From NCBI GenBank assembly GCA_029210625.1, contig JARGFU010000001.1, positions 133,806 through 197,805 on the forward strand: DNA of 64,000 bases, in the 5' to 3' direction. The notes beneath the pieces are model-generated. The model was not told the origin of the DNA. It saw only the letters and a list, made by a program, of their open reading frames with translations, and made no database searches. Source of the DNA: Deltaproteobacteria bacterium (GTDB lineage Bacteria; Myxococcota; Myxococcia; SLRQ01). Shown here piece after piece: positions 4,357 through 58,431 of the stretch; the first letter of the stretch is position 1; every line of letters starts with the position of its first letter. A program made the translations under genes and the position numbers.

Positions 4357-4815
4357 ATGAAGCTGAAGCACTGGGACATCGTACTGGCGGCGGCGCTGAT
4401 CGGCGGGGGCCTCGGCTGCCCGAGCGAGAGCGCCGGGAACGCGGTCTGCGGCAACGCCGTGGTCGAGGTGGGCGAGGCCTGCGACGACGGCAACACCACC
4501 GCCGGGGACGGCTGCGACGCGACCTGCCAGTGGGAGCCCTGCACCGACGCGGACGGCGACGGCCACGAGGACGCCACCTGCGGGGGCGACGACTGCGACG
4601 ACGGCGACCCGGCGAACTTCCCCGGAAACCCCGAGGTCTGCGACGGCCTCGACAACGACTGCCAGGGGGGCGCCGACGACGGCCTGACCTTCCTCGACTA
4701 CTGGCCCGACCTCGACCAGGACGACCACGGCGACGCGAGCGCCACGCCGGTGAGCGCCTGCGCGCCGATCGCCGGTTCGGTGACCAACGGCGACGACTGC
4801 GACGACACGCAGTAA
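4357..4815 (+). CDS. Secreted or lipoprotein cysteine-rich repeat protein, N-terminal part. It ends at an in-frame TAA inside a repeat.
   Basis: Signal peptide MKLKHWDIVLAAALIGGGLGC. Contains a Myxococcus cysteine-rich repeat (GNAVVEVGEACDDGNTTAGDGCDATCQ) and MopE-like putative metal-binding motifs (CxDxDGDG...CDDGDPxxxPGNPEVCDGLDNDC). Confidence 0.6.
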   Translation: MKLKHWDIVLAAALIGGGLGCPSESAGNAVCGNAVVEVGEACDDGNTTAGDGCDATCQWEPCTDADGDGHEDATCGGDDCDDGDPANFPGNPEVCDGLDNDCQGGADDGLTFLDYWPDLDQDDHGDASATPVSACAPIAGSVTNGDDCDDTQ

Positions 4816-4917
4816 ACCATCAGCCCCGACGCCACCGAGCTCGAGTGCGATGGCTTCGACAACGACTGCGACCCCCTGACGCCGGACGACCTCGACCTCG
4901 ATCAGGACGGAGTCGGT

Positions 4918-6765
4918 GTGTGCAGCGACTGCAGCGACACCGATCCCGACAACTGGGACTCCTGCGCGACCTGCGTGGACGAGGACGGGGACGGCGCCTA
5001 CGCGGGCTGCGACGCCTACGTGATGCGGGCCGGCGAGGACTGCGAGCCCCTCGACCCCGCCATCCACCCGGGCGCCACCGAGATCTGCGACAACATCGAC
5101 AACGACTGCGTCGGCGGCGTCGACGACAACGTCGCCTACCTCGACTACTACCTGGATGGCGACGGCGACGGCTACGGGGACGGCGGCGCGGCCCCGGTGA
5201 ACGACTGCACGCCCCCGGCCGGGCGCGTGCCGGACGCCACCGACTGCGACGACGGGGACCCCAACAACTGGGCCTCCTGCAGCGCCTGCGTCGACGGGGA
5301 CGGCGACGGCACCTACGCCGGCTGTGACGCCTACCAGACGATCCTCGAGGACTGCGACGACGGGGACGGCGCCAACTTCCCCGGCAACACCGAGGTCTGC
5401 GACGGCGCGGACAACGACTGCGCCGGCGGGGCCGACGACGGCCTGACCTTCAGCGACTACTGGCCGGACATCGACGGCGACGGCTTCGGCGACGCGCTCG
5501 CGGCGCCGGTGAGCGCCTGCGCGCCCCCCGCAGGCACGGCGCCGAACGGCAACGACTGCGCCGACGGCGACCCGACGGTGAACCCCGGCGCCGTCGAGAT
5601 CTGCGAGGACACCATCGACAACGACTGCGTCGGCGGCGACGCGGTCTGCGCCTGCGGCAACGGCTCCCTCGAGAGCGGCGAGGTCTGCGACGACGGCAAC
5701 CTCTGCGCCTACGACGGCTGCTCCGGCGATCCGGCCGGCGCGGTGAACCAGTGCCAGGGCGAGGAGACCGTCGTCCTCACCACCCTGGCCCTCGGCACCG
5801 GCACCACCGGTTTCGACCTCGACGGCGACGGCACCATCGACAACCGGCTGGGCTCCAACGGGACCCTGCGGGGCGAGTTCAACAACATCCTCGCGGGCAC
5901 CCTCGACGACGGCAGCCTGATGCAGGTCTTCACCATCGCCGCCCTCGACAACGTGCCCTACAGCGGCACCGGCACGCCGGGCTACCAGGACGATCCCGAC
6001 GTGGTGGTCTCCCTCTACCCGACCGTCGATCCCGCCTGCACCACCGGCCCGGTCTACGGCGCCGCCAACCCGCCGCCCTGGATCGCGGGCCCCTGGCCGG
6101 TGGAGCTCTACAGCGACGCCGACGCCTGGGACACCGCGACCTGCGTCGGGGGCGCCCAGATCACCGACGCCGACGACCCGGCCAACGGCATCTACCCCAC
6201 CGGGGGAGGCCAGCTCGCGAACCCGGCCCCGCCGGCCCCCTACCTCCGGGCCCACGCCAGCCAGCTCTCCCTGGCGCTGGTCGGCGTCCAGACCGTCCTG
6301 CACGACGCCACCATCGAGGCCACGGTGGTGGACGACACGGCGGGCATCTCCGCGCTCACCAACGGCGTCCTCGGCGGAGCCGTGGCAGCCAGGAGCCTCT
6401 GGGGCATCCCCCTCGACGGCCCCGGCGGCAGCTGCGAGACCGCCCTCCACGCGGTCCGGGCGGTCGCCGGCGTCCCGGACATCGACATCGACGGCGACGG
6501 GTCCATGACGATCTCGGTGAGCTGCGCCGGCGGCTGGCTGGCCTGCCTGGTGCCCTGCGGTGGGGCGATCTGGTCCCTGGGCGACTGCGTGGACGAGGCC
6601 GGCACGGTCATCCCGGACAGCGACCTGAACGGCGATGGCGTCGTCTCCGACGGTGAGTGTCTCCTCGATCCCCGGATGGACGACGGCTACTCGGCGGGCA
6701 TGACCTTCACCGCCCAGGAGGTCAGCGTCACCCGCCAGGTCAGCGCGAGCACCTACTGCCCCTGA
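4918..6765 (+). CDS. Cysteine-rich repeat protein, continuation. Same frame as 4357..4815 and has no signal peptide of its own. Carries further MopE-like motifs and a C-terminal domain.
   Basis: Listed with a GTG start at 4918, but the frame is open and repeat-like immediately after the TAA at 4813-4815. Carries at least 6 more CDDGDPxxxPGAxExCDxxDNDC units. Confidence 0.55.
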   Translation: MCSDCSDTDPDNWDSCATCVDEDGDGAYAGCDAYVMRAGEDCEPLDPAIHPGATEICDNIDNDCVGGVDDNVAYLDYYLDGDGDGYGDGGAAPVNDCTPPAGRVPDATDCDDGDPNNWASCSACVDGDGDGTYAGCDAYQTILEDCDDGDGANFPGNTEVCDGADNDCAGGADDGLTFSDYWPDIDGDGFGDALAAPVSACAPPAGTAPNGNDCADGDPTVNPGAVEICEDTIDNDCVGGDAVCACGNGSLESGEVCDDGNLCAYDGCSGDPAGAVNQCQGEETVVLTTLALGTGTTGFDLDGDGTIDNRLGSNGTLRGEFNNILAGTLDDGSLMQVFTIAALDNVPYSGTGTPGYQDDPDVVVSLYPTVDPACTTGPVYGAANPPPWIAGPWPVELYSDADAWDTATCVGGAQITDADDPANGIYPTGGGQLANPAPPAPYLRAHASQLSLALVGVQTVLHDATIEATVVDDTAGISALTNGVLGGAVAARSLWGIPLDGPGGSCETALHAVRAVAGVPDIDIDGDGSMTISVSCAGGWLACLVPCGGAIWSLGDCVDEAGTVIPDSDLNGDGVVSDGECLLDPRMDDGYSAGMTFTAQEVSVTRQVSASTYCP

Positions 6766-21760: not shown

Positions 21761-22240
21761 CTAGCCCGATGCGCCCAGGCGTCCGCCGAGGGCGGCCACC
21801 AGGAAGAACTGCACCCGCCGCTGCAGCCCGGGAGCGCCGCTCTCCCGGCTGCCGGCGACGTTCAGCACCCGCACCCCGTGCTCGGCGCAGAAGTCGATGA
21901 AGCGCCCGGCCCAGCGCTCGTCGTTCCGGGAGAGGTCGACGTGGAGGAGCGGCCGGCCGTGACGGCGGGTCAGCGAGGCGGTCAGGGCCGAGCCGCCGGT
22001 GGGCTCCCCGTAGGTGAAGAGCACGGTGGCGTCGGCGGCCAGCACGTTCCTCTCGGTGCGGACCGCGTAGTCGCGCTCCGGGGTCTCCTCGAGGTGGTAC
22101 CGCTCGGGGATCCGCCCGTCCTCGGCGCGGCGGCCGGCGGGGCAGGCGCCGCCGTGGGAGAGACCGAGGAAGAGGGCGGCGTCCAGGCCACCCCGGTCGG
22201 CGCCCGTCTGCCCGCCGGAGATGATCTTCTCGACGCTCAC
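21761..22240 (-). CDS. SLOG-family 'putative molybdenum carrier' (YpsA/LOG-like Rossmann) protein
   Basis: IISGGQTGADRGGLDAA is the signature of the MoCo_carrier/SLOG family. Confidence 0.65.
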   Translation of the reverse strand: MSVEKIISGGQTGADRGGLDAALFLGLSHGGACPAGRRAEDGRIPERYHLEETPERDYAVRTERNVLAADATVLFTYGEPTGGSALTASLTRRHGRPLLHVDLSRNDERWAGRFIDFCAEHGVRVLNVAGSRESGAPGLQRRVQFFLVAALGGRLGASG

Positions 22241-24164: not shown

Positions 24165-25532
24165 CTAGCGGCAGAGGGGCGCCATGGCCAGGGCCTCCTC
24201 GAAGAGGACCCGGTGCTCCTTCAGCCGCACGTCCACCACCGCGCCCTCGCGTTCGACGCCCGCCAGGTCGCGGAAGCGCAGGCTGGCGCGCTCGACCTCG
24301 CAGTTGCCCCGCTCGTCGCAGCGCGGCTGGCTCTGGTGGCTCAGGGCCAGGGAGAGCAGCCCGGCCGAGCGCAGGCTGCGCAGCTCGGCGGGCTGGCTCC
24401 GGCGATCGCCGTTGGCGTCGGCCCAGAGCAGCAGGCGGTAGAAGGCCGGATCCCGCCGGTCGATCTGCCCGTCGCCGTTGGCGTCGAGGGCCGCGAGGGC
24501 CTCGAAGCCGTTCGCCGCCGGCCGGCCGTCGATCAGCACCGCCGAGCCGAAGAGCTCCTGCCCGGAGGTGATCGCCCCGTCGCCATCCCGATCGAGGGCC
24601 AGCCAGGGGGTGACCGCCGAGGGCCAGTCGGTGCGCAGCACGGGCGTCCGGCCGGGCGCCGCCAGGTCGAAGCGGCTCTCCCCGTCGTCGGGGAGGAAGC
24701 TCACCCGCTCGCCGCGCCCGAAGACGACGACCAGGGGGGTGGTGCAGCCGTGGGTCTCACAGCCGGAGCTGTCGACGCAGTAGTACTCGGTGTAGCGGTC
24801 CTGGTGCAGGCGGGTGAGCACCTGCCCCTCGCAGCGGCTGGTGACCCAGTCGCGGATCATGGTCTCCCAGCGGGTGGGCGAGGGATCGACCCGGCGCGAG
24901 CACCAGGCCTCGAGCCAGGCCTGGGAGCAGCCCCCCGAGTTGCCGGCGGCCAGGCAGGCCTGGAAGTCGTCGCCCAGGTGGCCGTTGCAGTTGCCCTTGC
25001 TGTCGTTCGCCTCGCAGGTCAGCTTGTCCTCGCAGACGGCGCAGCTCGGATCCGCGGCGCAGTCGGGGTCGTCACAGTCCAGAAGGCCATCGCAGTCGTC
25101 GTCGCTGCCGTTGGCGCAGTACTCGGCGCCGAGGTCCTGGCAGACCGCGCAGGCCGCGGCGCCGTTGCAGTCGGGATCCTCGCAGTCGATCGCGCCGTCG
25201 CAGTCCTCGTCGAGCCCGTTGCTGCAGTGCTCACCGCCCGGCTCGGGCTCACAGAGGTCGTCGCCGCCGCCGGGATCCCCGCCCCCCGGGAGGTCGTTGC
25301 CGCCGCCGGGCTCGCCGCCCCCGTCGGAGGAGGCGCCGCCCCCCGCGATGTCACCGGCGCTGGAGAGGCGCTGCCCTCCGCTCTCGATCGTCACCTCGCC
25401 GCCGCCGCAGCCGGGGGTCAGCAGGAAGGAGGGGACCAGGAGAGAGATGACGAGGGGCAGGAGGAAGCGCGGAGAGAGGGAGGGGTTCGCTCTCACGTCC
25501 TGCTGCCACCGATCGCCAGTCTTCGTCGTCAT
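24165..25532 (-). CDS. Cysteine-rich lipoprotein with duplicated CxNGxD[ED]DCDGxxDCxDPDC motifs and C-terminal DxDGDG (EF-hand/dockerin-like) calcium-binding repeats
   Basis: ATG at 25532 preceded by an AGGAGG RBS. Lipobox LLTPGC. The first 100 aa of the track ORF are rejected. Confidence 0.55.
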   Translation of the reverse strand: MTTKTGDRWQQDVRANPSLSPRFLLPLVISLLVPSFLLTPGCGGGEVTIESGGQRLSSAGDIAGGGASSDGGGEPGGGNDLPGGGDPGGGDDLCEPEPGGEHCSNGLDEDCDGAIDCEDPDCNGAAACAVCQDLGAEYCANGSDDDCDGLLDCDDPDCAADPSCAVCEDKLTCEANDSKGNCNGHLGDDFQACLAAGNSGGCSQAWLEAWCSRRVDPSPTRWETMIRDWVTSRCEGQVLTRLHQDRYTEYYCVDSSGCETHGCTTPLVVVFGRGERVSFLPDDGESRFDLAAPGRTPVLRTDWPSAVTPWLALDRDGDGAITSGQELFGSAVLIDGRPAANGFEALAALDANGDGQIDRRDPAFYRLLLWADANGDRRSQPAELRSLRSAGLLSLALSHQSQPRCDERGNCEVERASLRFRDLAGVEREGAVVDVRLKEHRVLFEEALAMAPLCR

Positions 25533-25834
25533 CTCTGCCTCCTGGGTTCCCACCCCGGAGGTGCTTGCAAGGTTGGATCCACTCCCCTTGCTCGCATGCG
25601 AGGCCGTGATTCCAGGACCTTGGCCCTCCCGGTCGGGCCGGGGGGTCCGGGGCCTCCTCCCCCCGAAGGCGGGGTCCCCACGCCTCAACCCCCGGCCGGC
25701 CGCCGCCTCGACGTGGCGCATTGACAAGGTGCGGCAGGATTGCGGAAAAGTCGTAACTTCGAGCTGCCCGGGAGCAGCAGCGCACGATCTCAACCCCGGC
25801 CCCGCGAGGGTCCGGACAACATGCGGGTACATCG

Positions 25835-27061
25835 GTGGACTACGAGAAGTTCTTCGGCGAGCAGATCGAGCAGCTCCAGGACGAGGGCAACTACCGGATC
25901 TTCGCGGATCTGGAGCGGATGGCCGGGGAGTTCCCCCGGGCGAAGGCCCACCACGGCGACTCGGTGGACGAGATCGTCGTCTGGTGCAGCAACGACTACC
26001 TGGGCATGGCCCAACACCCGGAGGTCCTCGCGGCGATGGTGGACGCGACCGAGCGCTACGGCGCCGGCGCCGGTGGCACCCGCAACATCGGGGGCACCCA
26101 CCACGAGATCGTGCTGCTCGAGCAGGAGCTCGCCGACCTCCATCAGAAGGAGGCCGCCCTGGTCCTGACCTCGGGCTGGGTGGCGAACCTCACCGCCCTG
26201 TGCACCCTCGGCGCCAAGCTCCCCGGAGCGGTGATCGTCTCGGACGCCTGGAACCACAACTCGATGATCGAGGGCATCCGGGCGGGCCGCTGCGACAAGG
26301 TCGTCTTCCGCCACAACGACGTCGACCACCTGGAGCTGATCTTGAAGGCCCTGCCCGAGGGCACGCCGAAGATCGTCGCCTTCGAGTCGGTCTACTCGAT
26401 GGACGGCGACATCGCCCCCATCGCCGACATCCTCGAGGTCTGCGAGCGGCACGGCGCCCTCTCCTACATCGACGAGGTCCACGCGGTGGGCCTCTACGGT
26501 GAGCGGGGCGGCGGCGTCTGCGAGCGCGAGGGCCTGATGGACCGGGTGGACGTCATCCAGGGCACCATGGCCAAGGGCTTCGGCGTCATCGGCGGCTACG
26601 TCGCGGGCAGCCGCAAGATGGTCGACTTCGTCCGCTCCTTCGGGCCGGGCTTCATCTTCTCCACCGCCCTGCCCCCGCCGGTGGCCGCGGCCTGCCGGGC
26701 CAGCGTGGCCTGGGTGAAGGCGCACCCGGAGATCCGGGAGAAGCACCAGGAGCGGGCCCGGGCCCTCTCCGACCGCCTCCTCTCCGCCGGCCTGCCGGTG
26801 ATGGTGAACCAGAGCCACATCGTCCCGGTGAAGGTGGGCGATCCGGTGCTCTGCCGCCGGGCCAGCGACCTCCTCGAGGAGCGCGGCCACTACGTCCAGC
26901 CGATCAACTACCCGACGGTGCCCAAGGGCACCGAGCGCCTTCGCTTCACCCCCTCGCCGAACCACGACGAGCAGATGATGGGCAGCCTCGAGCGCGCCAT
27001 GGTGGCGGTCTGGAAGGAGCTGGGCCTGCCCCTCTCCGGTGCGGAGAGCTCCGCCGCCTGA
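25835..27061 (+). CDS. hemA: 5-aminolevulinate synthase (ALAS; alpha-oxoamine synthase family)
   Basis: MDYEKFF…[12 protein letters not shown]…[10 protein letters not shown]…[12 protein letters not shown] aligns closely with Rhodobacter HemA along its whole length. GTG start. Confidence 0.8.
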
Positions 27062-27063
27062 GG

Positions 27064-28011
27064 TTGCCCATGCGCCCGGTCTCCCTGCTCCTTCGCCCCC
27101 TCCTCCTCGCTCTCCTCGTCAGCTCGGGCTGCGCCAACCTCGGCCGCAACATGGTCGAGGGGCACTTCGCCCGGCAGATGAAGAAGGCCGAGCTCGCGGC
27201 GAAGCGCCTCGAGATCGACGGACAGCCGATCGCCTACGTCGAGGGCGGCGACGCCGAGGGACCGGTGGTGGTGATGGTCCACGGCTTCTCGGGCGACAAG
27301 AGCAACTGGTACGCCTTCGCCCGCTACCTCGCCGAGGATCACCACCTCTACGCCCTGGACCTGCCGCCCTTCGGCGAGAGCCCCGAGCTCCCGGGCCGCC
27401 CCTACGACATCCGCACCCACGCCGCCGCCCTGGCGAGCTTCCTCGCGGCCGTGGGCGTGGAGCGCGCCCACCTGGTGGGCAACTCGATGGGCGGCCACAC
27501 CATCGGCCTCTTCGCCCTCGAGCACCCCGAGCAGGTGATGAGCCTGGCCCTCTTCGACGCCGCCGGCGTCCGCTCGCCGGTGAAGAGCGAGGCCATGCGC
27601 CTGGGCGAGGAGGGGAAGAACCCCTTCGAGATGCAGGAGCTCGAGGACGTCGACCGCCTGATGGCCCTGACCTTCGTCGACCCCCCGATGATGCCCGGCC
27701 CGGCGAAGCGCTACTTCTTCGAGCAGCGGCGAGCCCGGGATGCGCTGAACGCGCGCCTGCTGGAGGACTACCTGGCGAGCTACGTGGACCTCCAGCCCGA
27801 CCTCCCGAAGATCAGCGCCCCCACCCTCGTCCTCTGGGGCGACGGCGACCGCATCACCGACCCCTCGGCGGTGCAGGTCTTCGCCGACGGCCTGCCGAAC
27901 GAGACCGTGGTGATCATGGAGAAGTGCGGCCACTCCCCGATGATGGAGCGGCCCGAGGAGACGGCCCGGCACTACCGGGCCTTCCTCGCCTCGCTCGCGG
28001 CGGGCGACTAG
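27064..28011 (+). CDS. Alpha/beta-hydrolase fold lipoprotein
   Basis: Lipobox LLVSSGC. HGFSG oxyanion region and GNSMGG nucleophile elbow. A C-terminal His is present. Confidence 0.8.
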   Translation: MPMRPVSLLLRPLLLALLVSSGCANLGRNMVEGHFARQMKKAELAAKRLEIDGQPIAYVEGGDAEGPVVVMVHGFSGDKSNWYAFARYLAEDHHLYALDLPPFGESPELPGRPYDIRTHAAALASFLAAVGVERAHLVGNSMGGHTIGLFALEHPEQVMSLALFDAAGVRSPVKSEAMRLGEEGKNPFEMQELEDVDRLMALTFVDPPMMPGPAKRYFFEQRRARDALNARLLEDYLASYVDLQPDLPKISAPTLVLWGDGDRITDPSAVQVFADGLPNETVVIMEKCGHSPMMERPEETARHYRAFLASLAAGD

Positions 28012-28113
28012 GGGGTGTCCGCCCACGCATCGGTCGTTCGACCGATGCGATCGGGGTGAACCTTTCGCCGGGGGGGCGCGCTTCCCTGACGAACCCCAAC
28101 CAAGGAGCACCCC

Positions 28114-28371
28114 ATGTTCACGAAGATCCGCAAGAGCCTCCGCGACGAGTCGGGCCAGGGCATGACCGAGTACATCATCATCGTCTCCCTGATCGGCATC
28201 GCCAGCATCGGCGTCGTCAGCCTCTTCGGCGACAACGTCCGCGCCCTCTTCGCCGCCGCCGGCGACGGCATCGCCGGCAACGAGAACCGCTCGGTGAACA
28301 CCCGGGAGGACGGCGCGAAGTACGAGGTCCACCAGAACCTCAAGAACTTCTCCGAGGGCAACGGCGCCTAG
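28114..28371 (+). CDS. Flp/Fap family type IVb (Tad) pilin
   Basis: ESGQGMTEYIIIVSLIGIA is the Flp class-III prepilin motif. AAGGAG RBS. 85 aa. Confidence 0.7.
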   Translation: MFTKIRKSLRDESGQGMTEYIIIVSLIGIASIGVVSLFGDNVRALFAAAGDGIAGNENRSVNTREDGAKYEVHQNLKNFSEGNGA

Positions 28372-39566: not shown

Positions 39567-41505
39567 AGGCGCCGGCGTCCCAGCAGTCGGGGGCCGTGCC
39601 GCTCTGGCAGACGTTGCGGGCGGCGCCGAGCAGGTCGGTGCTCACCCCGTAGGCCGTGAGGTCCATGCCGATGTCGAGGGCCGCGGAGGTGGCGTCGAGG
39701 CGGTAGTCGAAGAGCTGGTAGCTCGCGCCCGCCAGCACGAAGGGCCGCAGGTCGCCCAGCACGGTGAGGGTCGTGGCGGAGTTCGCCAGGATCGGGAACT
39801 GGTGCACCGTCGCCGTGTCCGCCTGCACGAAGCGCCCGGCGTGCTCGCCGGCGGTCCAGCCGGCGTCGGCGTCGGTGAGGGTGGTCTCGACGACCTGGGG
39901 ATCCCAGCTGACCTCGTCCCAGGCGCCGCTGGCGGTCCCCGGCACGGTGACGAAGCCGGGCGCGGCGTCGACGACCCCGGCCCCGAGCGCGCAGGTCCCC
40001 TGGCCCCCACAGCCGAACCCCTCGAAGAGGGAGGCCTCGACCTCGATCACACCGGCGGCGGTGTTGCACCAGAGATCGGAGCCCGGCTCGTGATCGGCCA
40101 GGACGCTCCCGTAGACGCGGGAGAGGTTGCCCCGGTTCCAGAGGATCCCGCCGTAGGCCGTCGGGAGGTTGTTCGCCACGAGGTTCGAGTCGTGGGAGGC
40201 CGCGTTGGCGAAACAGAGCGTCTGCTCCGCGGCCTCGTTCCCGGCGACGACCGTCCGGCGCAGCTCGGTCGCGCTCCAGTTCGACATGAGCGCTGCGCAG
40301 CGGTTCCACTGGACGTCGTTCCAGGTCTCGTTGGCGACGAAGGAGCAGTCCTCGAAGACCACCGACGACTCGTGGATCCGGGCGCCGCCCCCTTCCGTGC
40401 GGGCGGAGTTGCTGACGAAGGCGGTGTTGGCCACCCGCACGTTCTGTGCGCCGACGGCGAGGAAGCCACCGCCGTCGTCGTCGACGATCTCGTAGTCTCC
40501 GAAGCGGCCCTCGGCCCGCCCACCGGTCACCACGAAGCCATCGAGGGTCGAGTTGCTCGTGGCGGTGACCACGTGCCAGACCTGCTCGGCCGAGTCGGGG
40601 CCGGCGTGGCCGTCGAGGATGGTGCGGTTCGTCCGCCAGTCACGCTCGGCGCGGGTCTGCTCGGTGCCGGCGAAGCCACCGTAGAGGGCCACCCAGGGCC
40701 GGAGCGCGATCGTGTCGGTCGGGTGGTCGTCGTAGACCCAGTAGTGCCCGGCCCGCACCCAGACCTCGCAGTGCTGCCCGTAGCCCGCGGCCCGCTTCGC
40801 CGCGAGCGCGATCCCGGCGTCGATCGAGGGCAGCGCGCCGGCCCAGGACTCGCCGTCGCAGCCGGTGCAGGTCGCCGCCGGATCGACCATCACCCGGCAG
40901 GTGCCGCAGTCCGTACCGGTCCAGCTCGGCCGGCAGACGCACTGCGACCCGTCGCAGTCCTGGTGAACTCCGCAGGCAGGGTCGCAGGCCACCAGCTCGC
41001 AGAGCCCGTCGAGGGGCTCAACCTCGGCGTCGAGAGCGCAGGCCCGCGCCACCTGCCCGCTCGAGTCGTCGCAGACCTCGTGGGGCTCGAGGGGCGGCAG
41101 GGCGATGTTGTCGCAGCCGGGCAGGCAGCTGCCGTCCCGATCGTGGTCCTGGTAGCCGGCCCGGCACCAGCAGCCGCTCATCGGCTCCTGGTAGCCACAG
41201 ACCCAGTCGGGCTCGACCTGACACTGGAAGCAGCCGTCACCCGGAAGATCGTTGCCGTCGTCGCACTCCTCGGCGGCGCCGAAGCCGTCGACCCAGGCGA
41301 AGCCGTCCCCGCAGAAGGCCTCCTGGCAGGTCCCCTGCGGACCGCTGGGGCAGGCGTCGTTGATCGAGAGGTTGCCGTCCTCGCAGCCCTCCCCCGGATC
41401 GAGGGTCGTGTTGCCGCAGGCCGGCTCTCCACCCCCGGGGAGGGCGAAGTCCCGATTGCAGGCGGACAGGGCCAGGAGCAGCAGGGGGAGCCGGGCGGTT
41501 CTCAC
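39553..41505 (-). CDS. Lipoprotein with Myxococcus cysteine-rich repeats and a right-handed parallel beta-helix domain
   Basis: Lipobox LLALSACN. Cys-rich repeats GEGCEDGNLSINDAC… and EECDDGNDLPGDGCFQC. Beta-helix repeat pattern in the C-terminal half. Confidence 0.6.
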   Translation of the reverse strand: MRTARLPLLLLALSACNRDFALPGGGEPACGNTTLDPGEGCEDGNLSINDACPSGPQGTCQEAFCGDGFAWVDGFGAAEECDDGNDLPGDGCFQCQVEPDWVCGYQEPMSGCWCRAGYQDHDRDGSCLPGCDNIALPPLEPHEVCDDSSGQVARACALDAEVEPLDGLCELVACDPACGVHQDCDGSQCVCRPSWTGTDCGTCRVMVDPAATCTGCDGESWAGALPSIDAGIALAAKRAAGYGQHCEVWVRAGHYWVYDDHPTDTIALRPWVALYGGFAGTEQTRAERDWRTNRTILDGHAGPDSAEQVWHVVTATSNSTLDGFVVTGGRAEGRFGDYEIVDDDGGGFLAVGAQNVRVANTAFVSNSARTEGGGARIHESSVVFEDCSFVANETWNDVQWNRCAALMSNWSATELRRTVVAGNEAAEQTLCFANAASHDSNLVANNLPTAYGGILWNRGNLSRVYGSVLADHEPGSDLWCNTAAGVIEVEASLFEGFGCGGQGTCALGAGVVDAAPGFVTVPGTASGAWDEVSWDPQVVETTLTDADAGWTAGEHAGRFVQADTATVHQFPILANSATTLTVLGDLRPFVLAGASYQLFDYRLDATSAALDIGMDLTAYGVSTDLLGAARNVCQSGTAPDCWDAGAYERP

Positions 41506-52255: not shown

Positions 52256-55200
52256 TCAGACGAGCGCGGAGAGGTAGTCGGCGCGCAGGCCCTCGTCGCG
52301 CAGGACGTCGTAGGCGTCGTCGAGGCCGCGGCGGATCTCCTCGAGCTTGCCCCAGAGATCCTGGTAGATGACGTCGGCGTAGCGGGCCGGCTGCATCTCC
52401 CGGGAGAGGCGCTCGTAGGCCTCCTTGATCTCGTAGGCGGTGGCGTCGCGGGTGACGCCGAGGATCTCGAAGTAGTCGGCGTCCAGCGCCTGGCGGAACT
52501 TCTCCTCGATGCGGGTGCGGTCGATCACCGCCTGGCTCTGCGCCTCCTCGGGAGTCGAGGCCCGGCCCTCGGGCATGGCGCCGCGCACGCGCACGGAGAC
52601 CTGACCAGTCGACTCGAGGACGTAGAGCACCTGGTAGGTGGGCTCCTCGCCGAGCCCCGAGAGGAAGACCAGCTCCTCGGCGGAGTGGAGCCCATCGACG
52701 CTGGTGGCCACCCGCCGCTCGCGGGCCGAGAAGCCGAAGACCTGCCAGTCGCCCGCGGTCTCGGTGGGAGCGAGCACGGTGGCCGGCCCGCCGAGGCAGC
52801 GGTGGATGCGATCGAGGGTGTACTTGCGGCGGATGCCCTCGGCGACGAGCGCGAAGGGATGATCGGGCAGGGCCACCCGGGCGTCCTCCGGGCAGACGGC
52901 CTGGATCCAGCGCCAGCGCCCCTCCTCCTCGGAGAAGGCCCCGAAGAGCGCCGCCTGGGCCTGGGCCCGGACCGTGTCGTAGAGCTCCTGGGCCTTGAGC
53001 TGCCCGGCCTCGACCAGGGCGACGGCCGCCTGGCGGGGGAGCAGATCGCCCTCGGCCCGGATCTGCCGCGCCTGCTGGCGGGTGATCCGGCCCAGGCGGC
53101 AGGCGACCTCCTCCAGGCGCTCCGCCGCCGAGGTGGAGCTGGCGCCCACGACCCGGCCGAGCTCGACGAAGACGGCGCGGTTCACCGCGGCGCCGTGGAT
53201 CTCCAGCACGCCGGTGGCCCGGGCCCGGTAGAGGTCGGCCAGGAGCCGCGGCAGATCCCGCTCGAGGAGATCGCCCTCCTCGGGGAAGGGCGCGCCGGTG
53301 GGGTTCGGCTGGATGTCCTGGGGCGCCGGCGAGTGCGGCGCGGGCGCCGGCGGCGGCGCGGGGTTGCGGGGCGGGAGGGGCTGCGGCATGGGCGGCGGCT
53401 CCACGGGAGGCGGCGGCGGGGGCGCGGCCTGCTGCACCGGCGCCGGGGCGACGGGCGCGGGCGCCATCGCGGGGGCGGCGAGGCCTCCGTAGGAGGGTGC
53501 CGGCGGAGGCGGAGGTGGGGGCGGCTGCTCGGCGATGATCGGCGCCGGGGGCGGCGGCGGTACGGCGATGATCGGCGCGGGAGGCGGTGGAGGTGGCGGG
53601 GCAGGCGTCGGGGGCTCGTAGCCCCCCCAGGTGGGCGCGGCCAGGGCCTCGGGGTCGAGCCCCTCGGCACCCTCCACCACCCCCTCCTCCGTGGCGGTCT
53701 CGGCGGCACCCCAGCCTGCGGCGGCGCTGGCCTCGATCTCGGGTCCGCCCCCGAAGGGATCGAGGAGCATCGAGCCCTCTTCGACCTCGGCCGGCGGGGC
53801 CGGGATCGGAGGCTCGGGCTCCGGGTCGGGCGCATCGAGATCGATCGCCAGCCGGCTGCTGCGCTCGACGGGCTCTCCCTGCAGGGACTCCAGCTCGTAG
53901 GTGGTCGGACCGCCGGCGCCCCAGCCCGAGGCCCGGGTCGGCGCAACCTCGCGCTCGAAGGAGGTCCACCCTCCCTCGACCACCGCCGAGCGAGCGGGCC
54001 GTGGCGCCGGAGCAGGTGCGGGGGCGGGCGCCGGGGGCTCGGGCTCGGGCGGCGTGGCCGCCACCTCGATGGGCCCGGCGCCGGGTTCGTCCGGGAGCGC
54101 CTCGTCCTCGAGCATCGACTCGAGGTCCTCGAGATCCTCGTCGCGCTCGGCCTCCTGCTGGGCCCGGCGCTCGGCCTCGGCCTGGGCAGCCCGCTCGGCC
54201 TCGGCCTCGGCCAGGCGGCGGGCCTCCTCGCGGGCCTTCTCCTTCGCGGCGCGCTTGGCCGCCTTGCGGGCAGCCTCCTCCGCCTCGGCCTTGCGGCGCA
54301 GCTCCTCCGCCTCACGGCGGGCTTCCTCCGCGGCCAGGCGGGCAGCCTCCTCGGCCGCGAGCCGCGCCGCCTCGGCCTCGGCCTCCCGGCGCGCTGCCTC
54401 CTCGGCCGCCTGACGCTCCGCCTCCTCGGCCGCGAGCCGCGCTGCCTCCTCGGCCGCCTGACGCTCCGCTTCCTCGGCCGCCTTCTGCGCTGCCGCCTCT
54501 TCGGCCGCGAGCCGCGCTGCCTCTTCCTCGGCCGCCTGACGCTCTGCCTCCTCGGCCGCGAGCCGCGCCGCCTCTTCCTCGGCCGCCCTCTGCGCTGCCG
54601 CCTCTTCGGCCGCGAGCCGCGCCGCCTCTTCCTCGGCCGCCTGACGCTCTGCCGCCTCTTCGGCCGCGAGCCGCGCTGCCTCTTCCTCGGCCGCCTGACG
54701 CTCTGCCTCCTCGGCCGCGAGCCGCGCCGCCTCTTCCTCGGCCGCCTTCTGCGCTGCCTCCTCGGCGGCCTTGCGGGCCTCCTCCTCGAGGGCCCGCGCC
54801 CTGGCGTCCTCCTCCTCCCGGCGCTTGCGCGCGGCCGCGACCTTCTTCTTGGCCTCCGCCGCGGCGCGCTGCTTCATCGCCTCGGCCCGGCGCTTCGCCT
54901 CGGCCTCGGCCCGCTCCTTCACCAGGGCCTCTTCCTCTTCCGGGCTGGCGGCCTCGGCGCCGGCGGCGATCTCCCGGGCGGCCCGCTCCAGGTCGGCGGT
55001 GCGCTGGCGCTCGAGGGCGTCGGCCACCTCTCCCGCCGAGGCCGCGGTGACGGCGTCGTCGTCGGAGCCGGCCTCGGCGTCGCCCATCATCTCGGAGCCG
55101 ATGTCACCGAAGAGCTCGTCGGCCAGCTCCCCGGAGCGGCCCGGCTCGGTGACCTCCCAGGCGCCGGTGAAGCCCCGCTCCTCCTCCTCGGGGGCCGGGG

Positions 55201-55855
55201 CCCCACCCCCGGCGGCCGCGAAGGCCTCCTCGGCCCCCGTCGCGGTGAGGGCCTGGGCGCCAGGATCGGTGAGCGGCTCGTGCTCGTCCTCGTCGAGGGG
55301 CGAGGCCATGAAGGAGACCGAGGCCCCGGGGTCGGTGGCGCCGTCGTCCATCGCGGGGACCGGCGGCGGCGCCGCGGGAAGCCCGCTGATCGCGGCCAGG
55401 AACTCGGAGGCCTCCTCGTCGCTGGGACCGGGGAGGTCGGGGAGGTCGGGGACGGCGGTCACCGCGGTCTGCTCGCGGTCGCGGTCCATCCCCAGGTAGG
55501 CGTCGACCTTGGCGGCCACTTCGGCCCAGGGCACGGGCCGCCGGAAGAAGCCGTCGCCGCCGTTGGCCAGCGCCGAGGCCGCGTCGGTGACCTCGCCCTG
55601 GCCGTCGCCGATCATCAGCACCGGCAGCATCGGATCCTTGGCCTGCTGCCGGATCGTCTTGCAGATCTCCAGGCCCGAGTGCTCGTCGGTGGAGAGCGAG
55701 AGGATCACCAGCGCGGGATCGTCGTGCTCGATCACGACCTCGGCGTCCGCCGCGTTCGAGGCGACGACCGGCTCGTAGCCACCCTCCTTGAGGATTCGCC
55801 GGGCCGCGGAGACGGACGCGATGTCGTCGTCGATGACGAGGATGCGCTTGGGCAT
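52256..55855 (-). CDS. Multi-domain protein: pseudo-receiver (REC lacking the phospho-Asp), acidic region, E/A-rich 17-aa tandem coiled-coil repeats, Pro-rich region, DUF4388 (PATAN-like) domain, and a J-like domain lacking the HPD motif
   Basis: The N-terminal CheY-like fold (ILVIDDD…) has Ser where the phospho-acceptor Asp is expected (ALVILSLS). About 10 AAEEEAARLAAEEAERQ units. A PPPPPAP-rich tract. DUF4388 core GDLLERDLPRLLADLYRARATGVLEI…RAVFVELGRVV. C-terminal DYFEILGVTRDATAYEIKEAYERLSREMQPARY (J domain with HPD replaced by QPA). Confidence 0.8.
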   Translation of the reverse strand: MPKRILVIDDDIASVSAARRILKEGGYEPVVASNAADAEVVIEHDDPALVILSLSTDEHSGLEICKTIRQQAKDPMLPVLMIGDGQGEVTDAASALANGGDGFFRRPVPWAEVAAKVDAYLGMDRDREQTAVTAVPDLPDLPGPSDEEASEFLAAISGLPAAPPPVPAMDDGATDPGASVSFMASPLDEDEHEPLTDPGAQALTATGAEEAFAAAGGGAPAPEEEERGFTGAWEVTEPGRSGELADELFGDIGSEMMGDAEAGSDDDAVTAASAGEVADALERQRTADLERAAREIAAGAEAASPEEEEALVKERAEAEAKRRAEAMKQRAAAEAKKKVAAARKRREEEDARARALEEEARKAAEEAAQKAAEEEAARLAAEEAERQAAEEEAARLAAEEAAERQAAEEEAARLAAEEAAAQRAAEEEAARLAAEEAERQAAEEEAARLAAEEAAAQKAAEEAERQAAEEAARLAAEEAERQAAEEAARREAEAEAARLAAEEAARLAAEEARREAEELRRKAEAEEAARKAAKRAAKEKAREEARRLAEAEAERAAQAEAERRAQQEAERDEDLEDLESMLEDEALPDEPGAGPIEVAATPPEPEPPAPAPAPAPAPRPARSAVVEGGWTSFEREVAPTRASGWGAGGPTTYELESLQGEPVERSSRLAIDLDAPDPEPEPPIPAPPAEVEEGSMLLDPFGGGPEIEASAAAGWGAAETATEEGVVEGAEGLDPEALAAPTWGGYEPPTPAPPPPPPPAPIIAVPPPPPAPIIAEQPPPPPPPPAPSYGGLAAPAMAPAPVAPAPVQQAAPPPPPPVEPPPMPQPLPPRNPAPPPAPAPHSPAPQDIQPNPTGAPFPEEGDLLERDLPRLLADLYRARATGVLEIHGAAVNRAVFVELGRVVGASSTSAAERLEEVACRLGRITRQQARQIRAEGDLLPRQAAVALVEAGQLKAQELYDTVRAQAQAALFGAFSEEEGRWRWIQAVCPEDARVALPDHPFALVAEGIRRKYTLDRIHRCLGGPATVLAPTETAGDWQVFGFSARERRVATSVDGLHSAEELVFLSGLGEEPTYQVLYVLESTGQVSVRVRGAMPEGRASTPEEAQSQAVIDRTRIEEKFRQALDADYFEILGVTRDATAYEIKEAYERLSREMQPARYADVIYQDLWGKLEEIRRGLDDAYDVLRDEGLRADYLSALV
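54431..54770. repeat. Tandem 51/54-nt direct repeats (about 6 units) encoding the AAEEEAARLAAEEAERQ coiled-coil repeat
   Basis: The unit cgcgagccgcgc[c/t]gcctcttcctcggccgcctgacgctctgcc… recurs at 54431, 54506, 54557, 54611, 54665 and 54716. Confidence 0.8.
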
Positions 55856-55989: not shown

Positions 55990-58431
55990 CTAGAGCATGT
56001 TGCCCGGATCCACGTCCAGGCTCATCCGCACCCCGCTGCGCGGCGGCAGGGAGGCGAGGTAGCCCCCCAGCCAGCGCACCGCGGCCGGGCTGCCGGCCTT
56101 CACCAGGAGCTGCCAGCGGGCCTTGTTGCGCAGGCGGGAGAGGGGCGCCGGCGCCGGCCCGAGGATCTCCAGGTCGGCCTCCGGGCTCTCCATGGCGGCG
56201 ATCTCGGCGGCCCGCCCGGCGGCCAGGGCCGCCAGCTCCACCTTCCGCGGGCTCCCACCGTCGAAGCGCACCAGGAGCAGGCGGCAGTAGGGGGGCCAGC
56301 GCATCTCCTCCCGGGTGACCAGCTCACGGCGGGCGAAGCCGGCGTAGTCCCCGGCCAGGGCCGCCTGGATCGCGGGGTGATCGGGCTGCCAGCTCTGGAG
56401 GATGACCCGCCCGGGATCCTCTCCGCGGCCGGCCCGCCCGGCCACCTGGGAGAGGAGCTGCACCGCCCGCTCGGCGGCGCGCAGGTCGGGGATCCACAGG
56501 CCCTGATCGGCGAGCACCACCCCCACCAGGGTCACCCCCGGGAAGTCGTGCCCCTTCGCCACCATCTGCGTCCCCACCATCACGTCGAAGTGGCCGGAGG
56601 CGAAGCCGGCGAGGCCCTCGGCCAGGGCGCCGCGCTGCCGGGTGGCGTCGCGATCGAGGCGCAGCACCCGCACCCCGGGGAAGCGCCGCAGCACCTCGTG
56701 CTCCAGGGCCTGGGTGCCGGCCCCCGCCGCCTGCAGCTCCCCGCCGCAGCCCTCGCAGTGGCGGGGGATCTCGGCGTCGTGGCCGCAGTAGTGGCAGAGC
56801 ACCACCGGCGGCGAGCGGTGCAAGGTCAGGCTGATGTCGCAGTTCGGGCAGCGCCGGGTCTCGCCGCAGCTCGGGCAGAGCAGGGCCGGCGCCTGGCCGC
56901 GCCGGTTCAGGAAGAGGATGGCCTGCTGGCCGGCGCCGAGGGTCTCCTCGAGGGCGCCGATGAGGGTGCCGGTGAGGAGGGGCAGCACCTCCTCGCGCCC
57001 GCCGCCCTCGAAGCTCGCCGGCCGCTGCTGGCGCAGGTCCACCACCTGCACCTCCGGCAGCGAGCGCCGCGCGACCCGTTCCAGAAGGCGGTGGTGGGCG
57101 TAGCGGCCGCGCTCGACGTTCGCCAGGGACTCGAGGGAGGGCGTGGCCGAGCCCAGCACCAGGAGCGCGTCGCTCTGCCGGGCCCGCACCACCGCCAGAT
57201 CTCGGGCGCTGTAGCAGAGGCCCTCTTCCTGCTTGAACGAGCCGTCGTGCTCCTCGTCGACCACGACCACGCCGAGCCGCTCCACCGGGGCGTAGATCGC
57301 CGAGCGAACCCCCACCGCGATCCGCGCCTCGCCGCGGTGCAGGCGCCACCAGCTCTCGCGGCGCTCGGCGTCCGAGAGCCCGGAGTGGAGCAGGGCCACC
57401 GTCGGCCCGAAGCGCGCCTGGAAGCGTCCGACGAGCTGGGGCGTCAGGGCGATCTCGGGCACCAGCACCAGGGCGCCCAGCCCCCGCTCGAGGGCCGCAT
57501 CGATCAGGCGCAGGTAGATCTCGGTCTTGCCGCTGCCGGTGACCCCCTCGATCAGGTGGGCGGAGAAGGCGCCGAGGGAGGCCACCAGCGCCTCGACCAC
57601 CGGTCCCTGCTCGGGCGTGAGCTCTCCGGGGCGGCCGGGATCGGCCTCGACGGCCACCCCTCCGCCGGACTCCGGGGCCTCCTCCAGGGCGACCAGGCCC
57701 CGCTCCTCCAGCTTCTTGAGCAGGGGCCCCGCGCCGGGGACGGCGGCCATCAGCTCCTGGCGGCTCGCCTCGCCCCGCGCCTCCAGCCACTCCATCACCG
57801 CCCGCTGCGCCGGGGCCCGCTCCAGCTCGAGCCGGGCGTCGTCCAGGGAGTGGAGCTGCCGCACGGTGACCGGCACGGCGCGCCGGCCCTCGCGGACCCC
57901 CTCCCAGGACTCGCGCACCTCGGCCACCCCCGCCTCGAGCAGGCGCGCCGCCACCGGCGTGGGCACGCCGCCGCGCCCACCCACCCGCAGGCGCCCGGCC
58001 GGCGCCTCGCGCAGGCGCGCGAGCACCTCCTCGGCGGCCTTGCCGAGGGCGGGCGCCTCTTCTGGCGCGGGGCTCGAGGGCACGAGGAAGCGGGAGCCCC
58101 GCAGCGCCATCCCCGGCGGCAGGGCGGTGCGCAGGACGTCACCGAGGGGATGCAGGTAGTAGTCCGCGGCGAAGACGCAGAGGGAGATCAGCTCCTCGGA
58201 GAGCAGGGGCTCGAGGTCGAGGATCTCCAGCAGGTCCCGGGCCTCGTAGCCCTCGGGGGTGGCCCCCTCCGGCTCGATGACGATCCCGGTGAGGCGGCGG
58301 CCGCCGAAGGGGACGAGCACCCGCTGCCCGCGAGCGAGCGGCACCCCGGCGAGGTGCTCGGGCACCCCGTAGGTGAAGGTGCCGTCCACCGGCACGGTGA
58401 CGGCGACCTCGACGAAGCGACCCGCTGCCAA
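55990..58431 (-). CDS. priA: Primosomal protein N' (replication restart helicase PriA)
   Basis: Walker A GVTGSGKTE, a DEEH helicase motif, and the Cys4/Cys4 zinc-binding insert CPSCG…CPNC…CHYCG…CEGCG. Confidence 0.9.
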   Translation of the reverse strand: MAAGRFVEVAVTVPVDGTFTYGVPEHLAGVPLARGQRVLVPFGGRRLTGIVIEPEGATPEGYEARDLLEILDLEPLLSEELISLCVFAADYYLHPLGDVLRTALPPGMALRGSRFLVPSSPAPEEAPALGKAAEEVLARLREAPAGRLRVGGRGGVPTPVAARLLEAGVAEVRESWEGVREGRRAVPVTVRQLHSLDDARLELERAPAQRAVMEWLEARGEASRQELMAAVPGAGPLLKKLEERGLVALEEAPESGGGVAVEADPGRPGELTPEQGPVVEALVASLGAFSAHLIEGVTGSGKTEIYLRLIDAALERGLGALVLVPEIALTPQLVGRFQARFGPTVALLHSGLSDAERRESWWRLHRGEARIAVGVRSAIYAPVERLGVVVVDEEHDGSFKQEEGLCYSARDLAVVRARQSDALLVLGSATPSLESLANVERGRYAHHRLLERVARRSLPEVQVVDLRQQRPASFEGGGREEVLPLLTGTLIGALEETLGAGQQAILFLNRRGQAPALLCPSCGETRRCPNCDISLTLHRSPPVVLCHYCGHDAEIPRHCEGCGGELQAAGAGTQALEHEVLRRFPGVRVLRLDRDATRQRGALAEGLAGFASGHFDVMVGTQMVAKGHDFPGVTLVGVVLADQGLWIPDLRAAERAVQLLSQVAGRAGRGEDPGRVILQSWQPDHPAIQAALAGDYAGFARRELVTREEMRWPPYCRLLLVRFDGGSPRKVELAALAAGRAAEIAAMESPEADLEILGPAPAPLSRLRNKARWQLLVKAGSPAAVRWLGGYLASLPPRSGVRMSLDVDPGNML

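Follow-up and report, generated by a model that had tools for sequence, protein, structure and literature searches.

The synthesis of 5-aminolevulinate (ALA) by a 5-aminolevulinate synthase (ALAS), the enzyme that opens the heme pathway, is assigned among bacteria, in reviews published up to 2026, to the alpha-proteobacteria only (PMC13564367, PMC7242693). Exceptions are known: cyclizing enzymes (cALAS) occur in actinomycetes, stand-alone classical ALASs found in Chromobacterium, some Streptomyces, and Geobacillus have been ascribed to horizontal transfer (PMC4525017), and a phage-borne enzyme, vAlaS, has been described as well (PMC11480375). We searched the literature on Myxococcota, Myxococcales, and Deltaproteobacteria and came upon no paper that describes an ALAS there. 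An ALAS-like gene located in a 64-kb window (the whole stretch of DNA analysed here) of a metagenome-assembled genome (MAG) with a myxobacterial context raises the questions of whether the gene product is an ALAS of the classical type, how the gene came to reside in such a host, and what it does there. We consider it very probable that the gene product is a working ALAS of the classical, non-cyclizing type, and that the gene moved from Alphaproteobacteria to Myxococcota in an old transfer and was then inherited mostly vertically in a few high-GC lineages.

The synthase gene, its family, and its catalytic residues

The coding sequence for the classical, HemA-type ALAS (EC 2.3.1.37) extends from 25835 to 27061 on the forward strand and specifies a protein of 408 residues, with a GTG start and a TGA stop codon at 27059–27061. 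The nearest upstream in-frame stop ends at 25756, and the frame offers no ATG, GTG, or TTG from there up to 25835. The start is also backed by homology, because residues 1–400 of the 408 align with positions 1–401 of the 402-position ALAS model TIGR01821. GC contents at codon positions 1, 2, and 3 are 0.69, 0.43, and 0.98, a pattern typical of real genes in the window, and the gene as a whole has a GC content of 69.8% vs 72.2% for the window. The reading frame is as given in the preliminary description, and both of the sequence blocks named there are present. The N-terminal block (residues 1–28, 25835–25918, forward strand) aligns from residue 1 with the ALASs of Rhodobacter capsulatus and PDB entry 7x98 and includes Arg21, a succinyl-CoA carboxylate contact. 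The second block, GTMAKGFG, contains Lys247, the PLP Schiff-base lysine (Lys248 in R. capsulatus), whose AAG codon lies at 26573–26575 on the forward strand. An identical protein is already public at NCBI as "5-aminolevulinate synthase [Deltaproteobacteria bacterium]" (MDF1561534.1); the enzyme is entirely conventional, and its NCBI name is already correct.

The other alpha-oxoamine synthases, KBL, BioF, serine palmitoyltransferase (SPT), and CqsA, share both the fold and the PLP-lysine block with the window protein, and the HMMs for these sister families give significant matches to it (E values from 1e-99 to 1e-32), as might be expected if the protein belonged to one of them and merely resembled an ALAS. 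Every one of these models, however, scores far below its own curated cut-off: BioF reaches 331 vs a cut-off of 426, the two KBL models 295 vs 460 and 258 vs 493, the three SPT models at most 246 vs cut-offs of at least 500, and CqsA 187 vs 428. The NCBIfam ALAS equivalog model TIGR01821, in contrast, scores 608.1 bits vs a cut-off of 338.55, while Pfam recognizes only the generic Aminotran_1_2 fold. The top solved structures retrieved in a PDB search are all ALASs, led by 7x98 (E 4.5e-148) and including the R. capsulatus enzyme 2bwn (2.2e-137), human ALAS2 (1e-123), and yeast Hem1 (2e-114), and the next family appears only at 1.6e-66. Identity to the solved bacterial ALASs is 55–57%, with R. 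capsulatus at 55%, vs 33% to Escherichia coli Kbl and 31% to E. coli BioF. In neighbour-joining trees rooted on these two E. coli proteins, the window protein nests among the bacterial ALASs, which split from Kbl and BioF with 100% bootstrap support; the clustering with KBL or BioF that the preliminary description had set as its refutation was not seen. Moreover, Arg21, Thr82, and Lys155, the residues specific for succinyl-CoA, are all present. The HMM cut-offs, structural matches, tree, and full set of catalytic residues together support the prediction that the window protein is an ALAS and not a KBL, BioF, SPT, or CqsA, as first proposed, and make a look-alike from a sister family scarcely conceivable.

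Alignment with the R. capsulatus enzyme (55% identity) allowed us to map the contact residues in greater depth. At the PLP site, K247, H141, D213, H216, T244, S188, S276, and T277 are kept (R. capsulatus Lys248, His142, Asp214, His217, Thr245, Ser189, and Ser277/Thr278). The glycine-carboxylate contacts R370 and N53 (Arg374 and Asn54) are likewise conserved, as are the succinyl-CoA contacts R21, T82, N84, I85, S136, K155, and T361 (Arg21, Thr83, Asn85, Ile86, Ser137, Lys156, and Thr365). All catalytic residues, including Arg21 and Lys247, are invariant across the seven members of the clade described below. The protein would be a PLP-dependent homodimer of fold-type I, and its predicted reaction follows what is known for the family, for which a general scheme is available (PMC7242693). 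Glycine would displace Lys247 from PLP to give the external aldimine and would then be deprotonated; the deprotonated glycine would condense with succinyl-CoA, whose carboxylate would be held by Arg21, Thr82, and Lys155; and the 2-amino-3-ketoadipate intermediate would decarboxylate to 5-aminolevulinate, which would enter tetrapyrrole (heme) synthesis in the uncultured Myxococcota host. Both the ALAS activity and this physiological role in heme supply are what we infer. One regulatory feature may differ from that of a relative. In Caulobacter crescentus ALAS, the heme ligands His340 and Cys398 mediate feedback inactivation (PMC6154995). In the window protein, Leu339 aligns with the ligand His and the C-terminal tail carries no Cys; as these ligands are not conserved, feedback regulation by heme of the C. 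crescentus type is probably absent.

Myxobacteria are prolific producers of secondary metabolites. One may ask whether the window gene codes for a cyclizing ALAS that supplies a secondary-metabolite pathway with the C5N unit (2-amino-3-hydroxycyclopent-2-enone), like its counterparts in the asukamycin, moenomycin, and bafilomycin clusters of Streptomyces, a use that the preliminary description had raised. The ALAS genes of actinomycetes, outside the Alphaproteobacteria, are often of the cyclizing type (PMC4525017). The cALAS signature consists of the substitutions T83S, I149L/V, D231T, and T365S (Petrickova et al., PMC4525017), and within a biosynthetic cluster the cALAS gene forms a triad with the genes for ALA-CoA ligase and amide synthase (PMC4525017). 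The window protein, however, has Thr82, Ile148, and Thr361 at the corresponding sites, so that T83S, I149L/V, and T365S are absent, and these three residues are invariant across the clade. Furthermore, a Pfam scan of the roughly 50 genes in the 64-kb window revealed no AMP-dependent (ALA-CoA) ligase, amide synthetase, PKS, NRPS, or heme genes, and relatives of the window ALAS are placed among housekeeping genes. The proposed C5N use thus finds no counterpart in the residues or the surroundings of the gene and is very improbable. The window ALAS does not mark C5N production and is therefore irrelevant to the discovery of natural products.

The host contig and the genes flanking the synthase

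The window is a piece of ordinary chromosome, with genes for MatE, PCMT, sulfate permease, a T2SSE ATPase, ThiC, GH92, a TonB-dependent receptor, PriA, histidine kinases, and others. The priA gene (55990–58395, reverse strand) and the ALAS gene are both part of one NCBI MAG contig of 530,391 bp. The named relatives of PriA, at 45–56% identity, are all from Myxococcota: Stigmatella, Corallococcus, Cystobacter, Archangium, Melittangium, Anaeromyxobacter, and several Myxococcaceae MAGs. The window also encodes Cys-rich repeat proteins of the DUF4215/MopE type and DUF4388 proteins, which we take to be typical of Myxococcota. Together with the PriA relatives, these proteins support a placement of the host in Myxococcota at the phylum level, and the myxobacterial context proposed earlier is upheld.

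Several other features of the window deserve mention in their own right. Cys-rich repeat proteins encoded at 4357–6765 (forward strand) and 39553–41505 (reverse strand) bear MopE-type putative metal-binding motifs and DUF4215 and fit a Myxococcota origin, as does a protein of 1199 residues (52256–55855, reverse strand) with an unusual architecture in which an N-terminal response-regulator receiver is followed by DUF4388 and a C-terminal DnaJ (J) domain. A 671-residue homologue of the eukaryotic Major Vault Protein (MVP) is encoded at 30993–33008 on the forward strand (longest open reading frame from 30678). It matches the Pfam families MVP_shoulder (4.8e-31) and Vault_3, and its residues 144–655 align with MVP positions ~289–839 of PDB entries 7pkz/4hl8 (E 3e-34); the occurrence of an MVP-like protein in a bacterium, here a Myxococcota MAG, may merit separate study. 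A circularly permuted YpsA protein of the SLOG family (21761–22240, reverse strand; PF12694, 1.4e-50) adjoins an ADH-like gene. Finally, the region (33628–33807) upstream of thiC (33808–35676, forward strand) yielded no TPP riboswitch, whether the whole window was searched at Rfam gathering thresholds or 33000–34000 at E ≤ 1. A thiC gene without an upstream TPP riboswitch is unusual in bacteria.

Immediately downstream of the ALAS gene, an alpha/beta-fold hydrolase with an N-terminal signal or lipobox-like sequence is encoded at 27064–28011 on the forward strand (Pfam Abhydrolase_1, 3.4e-31). Its start is either the TTG at 27064, 2 nt after the ALAS stop, or the ATG at 27070, 8 nt after it, rather than at the distance of 4 nt given in the preliminary description. 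With a gap of 2–8 nt, the hydrolase gene is probably co-transcribed with the ALAS gene. A functional pairing of the two was nevertheless rejected, because they are never adjacent in the 167 other ALAS loci and because no synteny around the ALAS gene was seen between the window and the clade contigs examined. Just 3′ of the hydrolase gene lies a small open reading frame of 85 codons (28114–28371, forward strand) with a GC3 of 1.00, whose product gives a weak Flp/Fap pilin match (1.9e-4) that falls under the Pfam cut-off.

On the other side of the ALAS gene, a divergently oriented gene codes for a Cys-rich secreted protein or lipoprotein with acidic double-disulfide repeats (24165–25532, reverse strand; NCBIfam NF033662, 1e-13). 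Although its longest open reading frame extends to 25832, GC3 and the ATG at 25532 mark the latter as the most likely start, leaving about 300 bp between the two genes. The C-terminal half of the protein contains several DxDxDG-type loops, and no Pfam family matches it. The Cys-rich protein is a neighbour only and has no part in ALAS function. Homologues of it and of the hydrolase are found beside the ALAS gene in 0 of the 167 other loci, in agreement with the earlier view that the flanking genes give no pathway context.

The divergent intergenic region (25533–25834), as read from the sequence, holds the TTGACA hexamer to which a −35-like role had been given. The hexamer is indeed present, at 25721–25726, but its promoter role did not stand: no matching −10 hexamer accompanies it, and a sigma-70 scan of 25400–28500 returned 0 promoter-like sites vs 0.1 expected, so that the box carries no weight. 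No Rfam element was found in the intergenic region.

Phylogeny and history of the gene

A search of 5.8 billion clustered proteins gave just six further clusters closer to the window ALAS than about 68% identity, one at 78% (P0002) and five at 68–71% (P0003–P0007). The next relatives, at 62–67%, are alphaproteobacterial (Terasakiella, Methylocystaceae, Rhodospirillales, and Marivibrio). In neighbour-joining trees, the seven high-GC sequences form a single clade with 98–100% bootstrap support. This clade nests inside the alphaproteobacterial ALASs, with the R. capsulatus and 7x98 enzymes branching more deeply; these trees are built on a limited sample and do not settle the exact alphaproteobacterial donor or the number of transfers. 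The horizontal acquisition suggested by the preliminary description agrees with this picture, in which Alphaproteobacteria supply the nearest relatives beyond the small high-GC clade. A special kinship to the ALASs of eukaryotes, as would follow from a myxobacterial contribution to eukaryotes, was also considered and rejected: the clade grouped with human or yeast ALAS in 0 of 100 bootstraps. With no such affinity, the view of eukaryotic ALAS as alphaproteobacterial is unaltered.

Three of the seven clade members could be traced to Myxococcota: the window sequence through PriA, P0003, which is labelled as a Myxococcaceae MAG, and P0006, which lies on a contig from the bin Polyangia_GCA_2747355. 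On the latter contig, the ALAS gene is positioned directly 5′ of rpsB-tsf-pyrH-frr (L089, 10001–14733), a core housekeeping setting that contrasts with the surroundings of the window gene. Comparison of the window with the clade contigs examined (L081–L084) revealed no synteny around the ALAS gene, and the neighbourhood differs in every member. A scan of GTDB genomes with query-specific peptide patterns recovered alphaproteobacterial loci only and none from Myxococcota, and a metagenome scan with the clade alignment yielded no further clade members among the matches listed, the best identity there being 63%.

A second small ALAS clade (P0029, P0034, and P0038) includes a sequence from 'Deltaproteobacteria bacterium CG2_30_63_29' (P0029) and is located near the Terasakiella group, apart from the window clade. 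It may represent another acquisition outside the Alphaproteobacteria. Joint monophyly of the two clades receives a bootstrap value of only 26%, and they may or may not stem from one shared transfer event.

The composition of the gene bears on the age of the transfer. GC3 is 0.98 for the window ALAS and 0.88–0.99 across the clade vs 0.48 in Terasakiella; the clade contigs have GC contents of 67–75%, and GC is flat across the ALAS region, without a compositional step. No tRNA, Rfam element, or phage genes were found in the window, nor any integrase or transposase gene among the roughly 50 neighbouring genes. Host-like codon usage and the lack of mobile-element marks indicate that the transfer was old. 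Within the clade, dN/dS values are 0.36–0.52, values of limited weight, as dS is compressed under so extreme a GC3, and purifying selection is probably stronger than these values imply. The simplest reading is that the gene apparently derives from an old transfer from Alphaproteobacteria to Myxococcota, after which it ameliorated and was kept under selection; the direction and age of the transfer we infer from tree topology and base composition.

A gene whose closest named relatives are Alphaproteobacteria, found in a metagenome-assembled genome, could also be an artefact of assembly or binning, with a fragment of alphaproteobacterial DNA chimerically fused to a myxobacterial contig or placed in its bin. 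Against this, the ALAS gene has a central position in the window and shares its 530 kb contig with the Myxococcota-type priA gene, its GC3 matches that of its neighbours and not that of Terasakiella, regional GC shows no break, and its stop codon lies 2–8 nt from the next, host-like gene. In addition, six independent high-GC relatives from other samples join it in one clade. An artefact of this kind is exceedingly improbable.

Role in the host and comparison with known synthases

If the gene was acquired long ago and kept, the question arises whether it has replaced the ancestral C5 route (GluTR plus GSAM) as the only source of ALA in its lineage, which would make the host a true Shemin-pathway member of the Myxococcota. 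The ALAS gene persists in divergent Myxococcota MAGs, where it is conserved, has ameliorated, and evolves under purifying selection, the Polyangia relative carries it in a core housekeeping setting adjoining rpsB-tsf-pyrH-frr, and the presence of both ALA routes in one cell has been described as extremely rare (PMC4525017). Yet stand-alone classical ALASs alongside the C5 route are documented in Streptomyces (PMC4525017), and the 64 kb covered here are free of hem genes. On balance, a complete replacement of the C5 route is a doubtful proposition. Only tentatively, then, can it be suggested that uncultured Myxococcota (Myxococcia-like and Polyangia MAGs) vertically keep an anciently acquired ALAS with the Shemin route as their primary, and possibly sole, ALA source. 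If this were true, Myxococcota would be the second bacterial phylum with an ALAS of primary metabolism, contradicting the statement that alpha-proteobacteria are the sole bacteria with AlaS (PMC13564367), and if the C5 route were absent from these genomes, a pathway would have been replaced through one horizontally acquired gene.

Among the known systems, the closest match to the predicted classical ALAS of the window is the alphaproteobacterial enzyme itself (HemA/AlaS; 2BWN, 7X98, TIGR01821). The two are of the same length and colinear from residue 1, all of the PLP, glycine, and succinyl-CoA contacts are identical, and identity amounts to 55–57% with the solved structures and 62–67% with the Terasakiella/Rhodospirillales sequences. 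The window enzyme differs in its Myxococcota host, its GC3 of 0.98, and its membership in a seven-sequence clade of its own and, with respect to the C. crescentus enzyme, in lacking the His/Cys heme-feedback ligands (Leu339; no C-terminal Cys). The cALASs of actinomycetes, e.g. AsuD2, are homologous members of the same ALAS family and likewise reside in a non-alphaproteobacterial host; they differ from the window ALAS in the signature substitutions T83S, I149L/V, and T365S and in their association with the ALL/AMS triad and a biosynthetic cluster.

The phage-borne vAlaS (PMC11480375) is another ALAS found outside the usual alphaproteobacterial setting, and it and the window enzyme may be alike in lacking the heme-feedback site. 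The window gene, by contrast, is chromosomal, in the company of PriA, ThiC, PCMT, and TonB-receptor genes, with no phage or mobile-element genes seen. An origin as a phage auxiliary gene was accordingly set aside, given that the gene is surrounded by chromosomal genes for housekeeping and envelope functions and that the window has no phage, integrase, or tRNA features.

A further comparison is with the stand-alone classical ALASs of Chromobacterium violaceum, some Streptomyces and Nocardia, and Geobacillus (the 'blue branches' of PMC4525017). Like the window ALAS, these are non-cyclizing, have no C5N link, and occur in contexts that are not conserved, and they too are read as gained by horizontal transfer from a lineage whose primary metabolism employs ALAS. 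Elsewhere, such genes often retain a donor-like, lower GC content or donor synteny, which points to a recent transfer, whereas the window ALAS is fully ameliorated and common to divergent Myxococcota MAGs, which suggests an old acquisition. A well-supported, ameliorated, and selectively kept clade of Myxococcota ALASs is a clean addition to the few exceptions on record (Streptomyces cALAS, Chromobacterium, and others). It departs only modestly from the textbook rule and does not amount to a novel type of system: the host is unusual, the enzyme ordinary.
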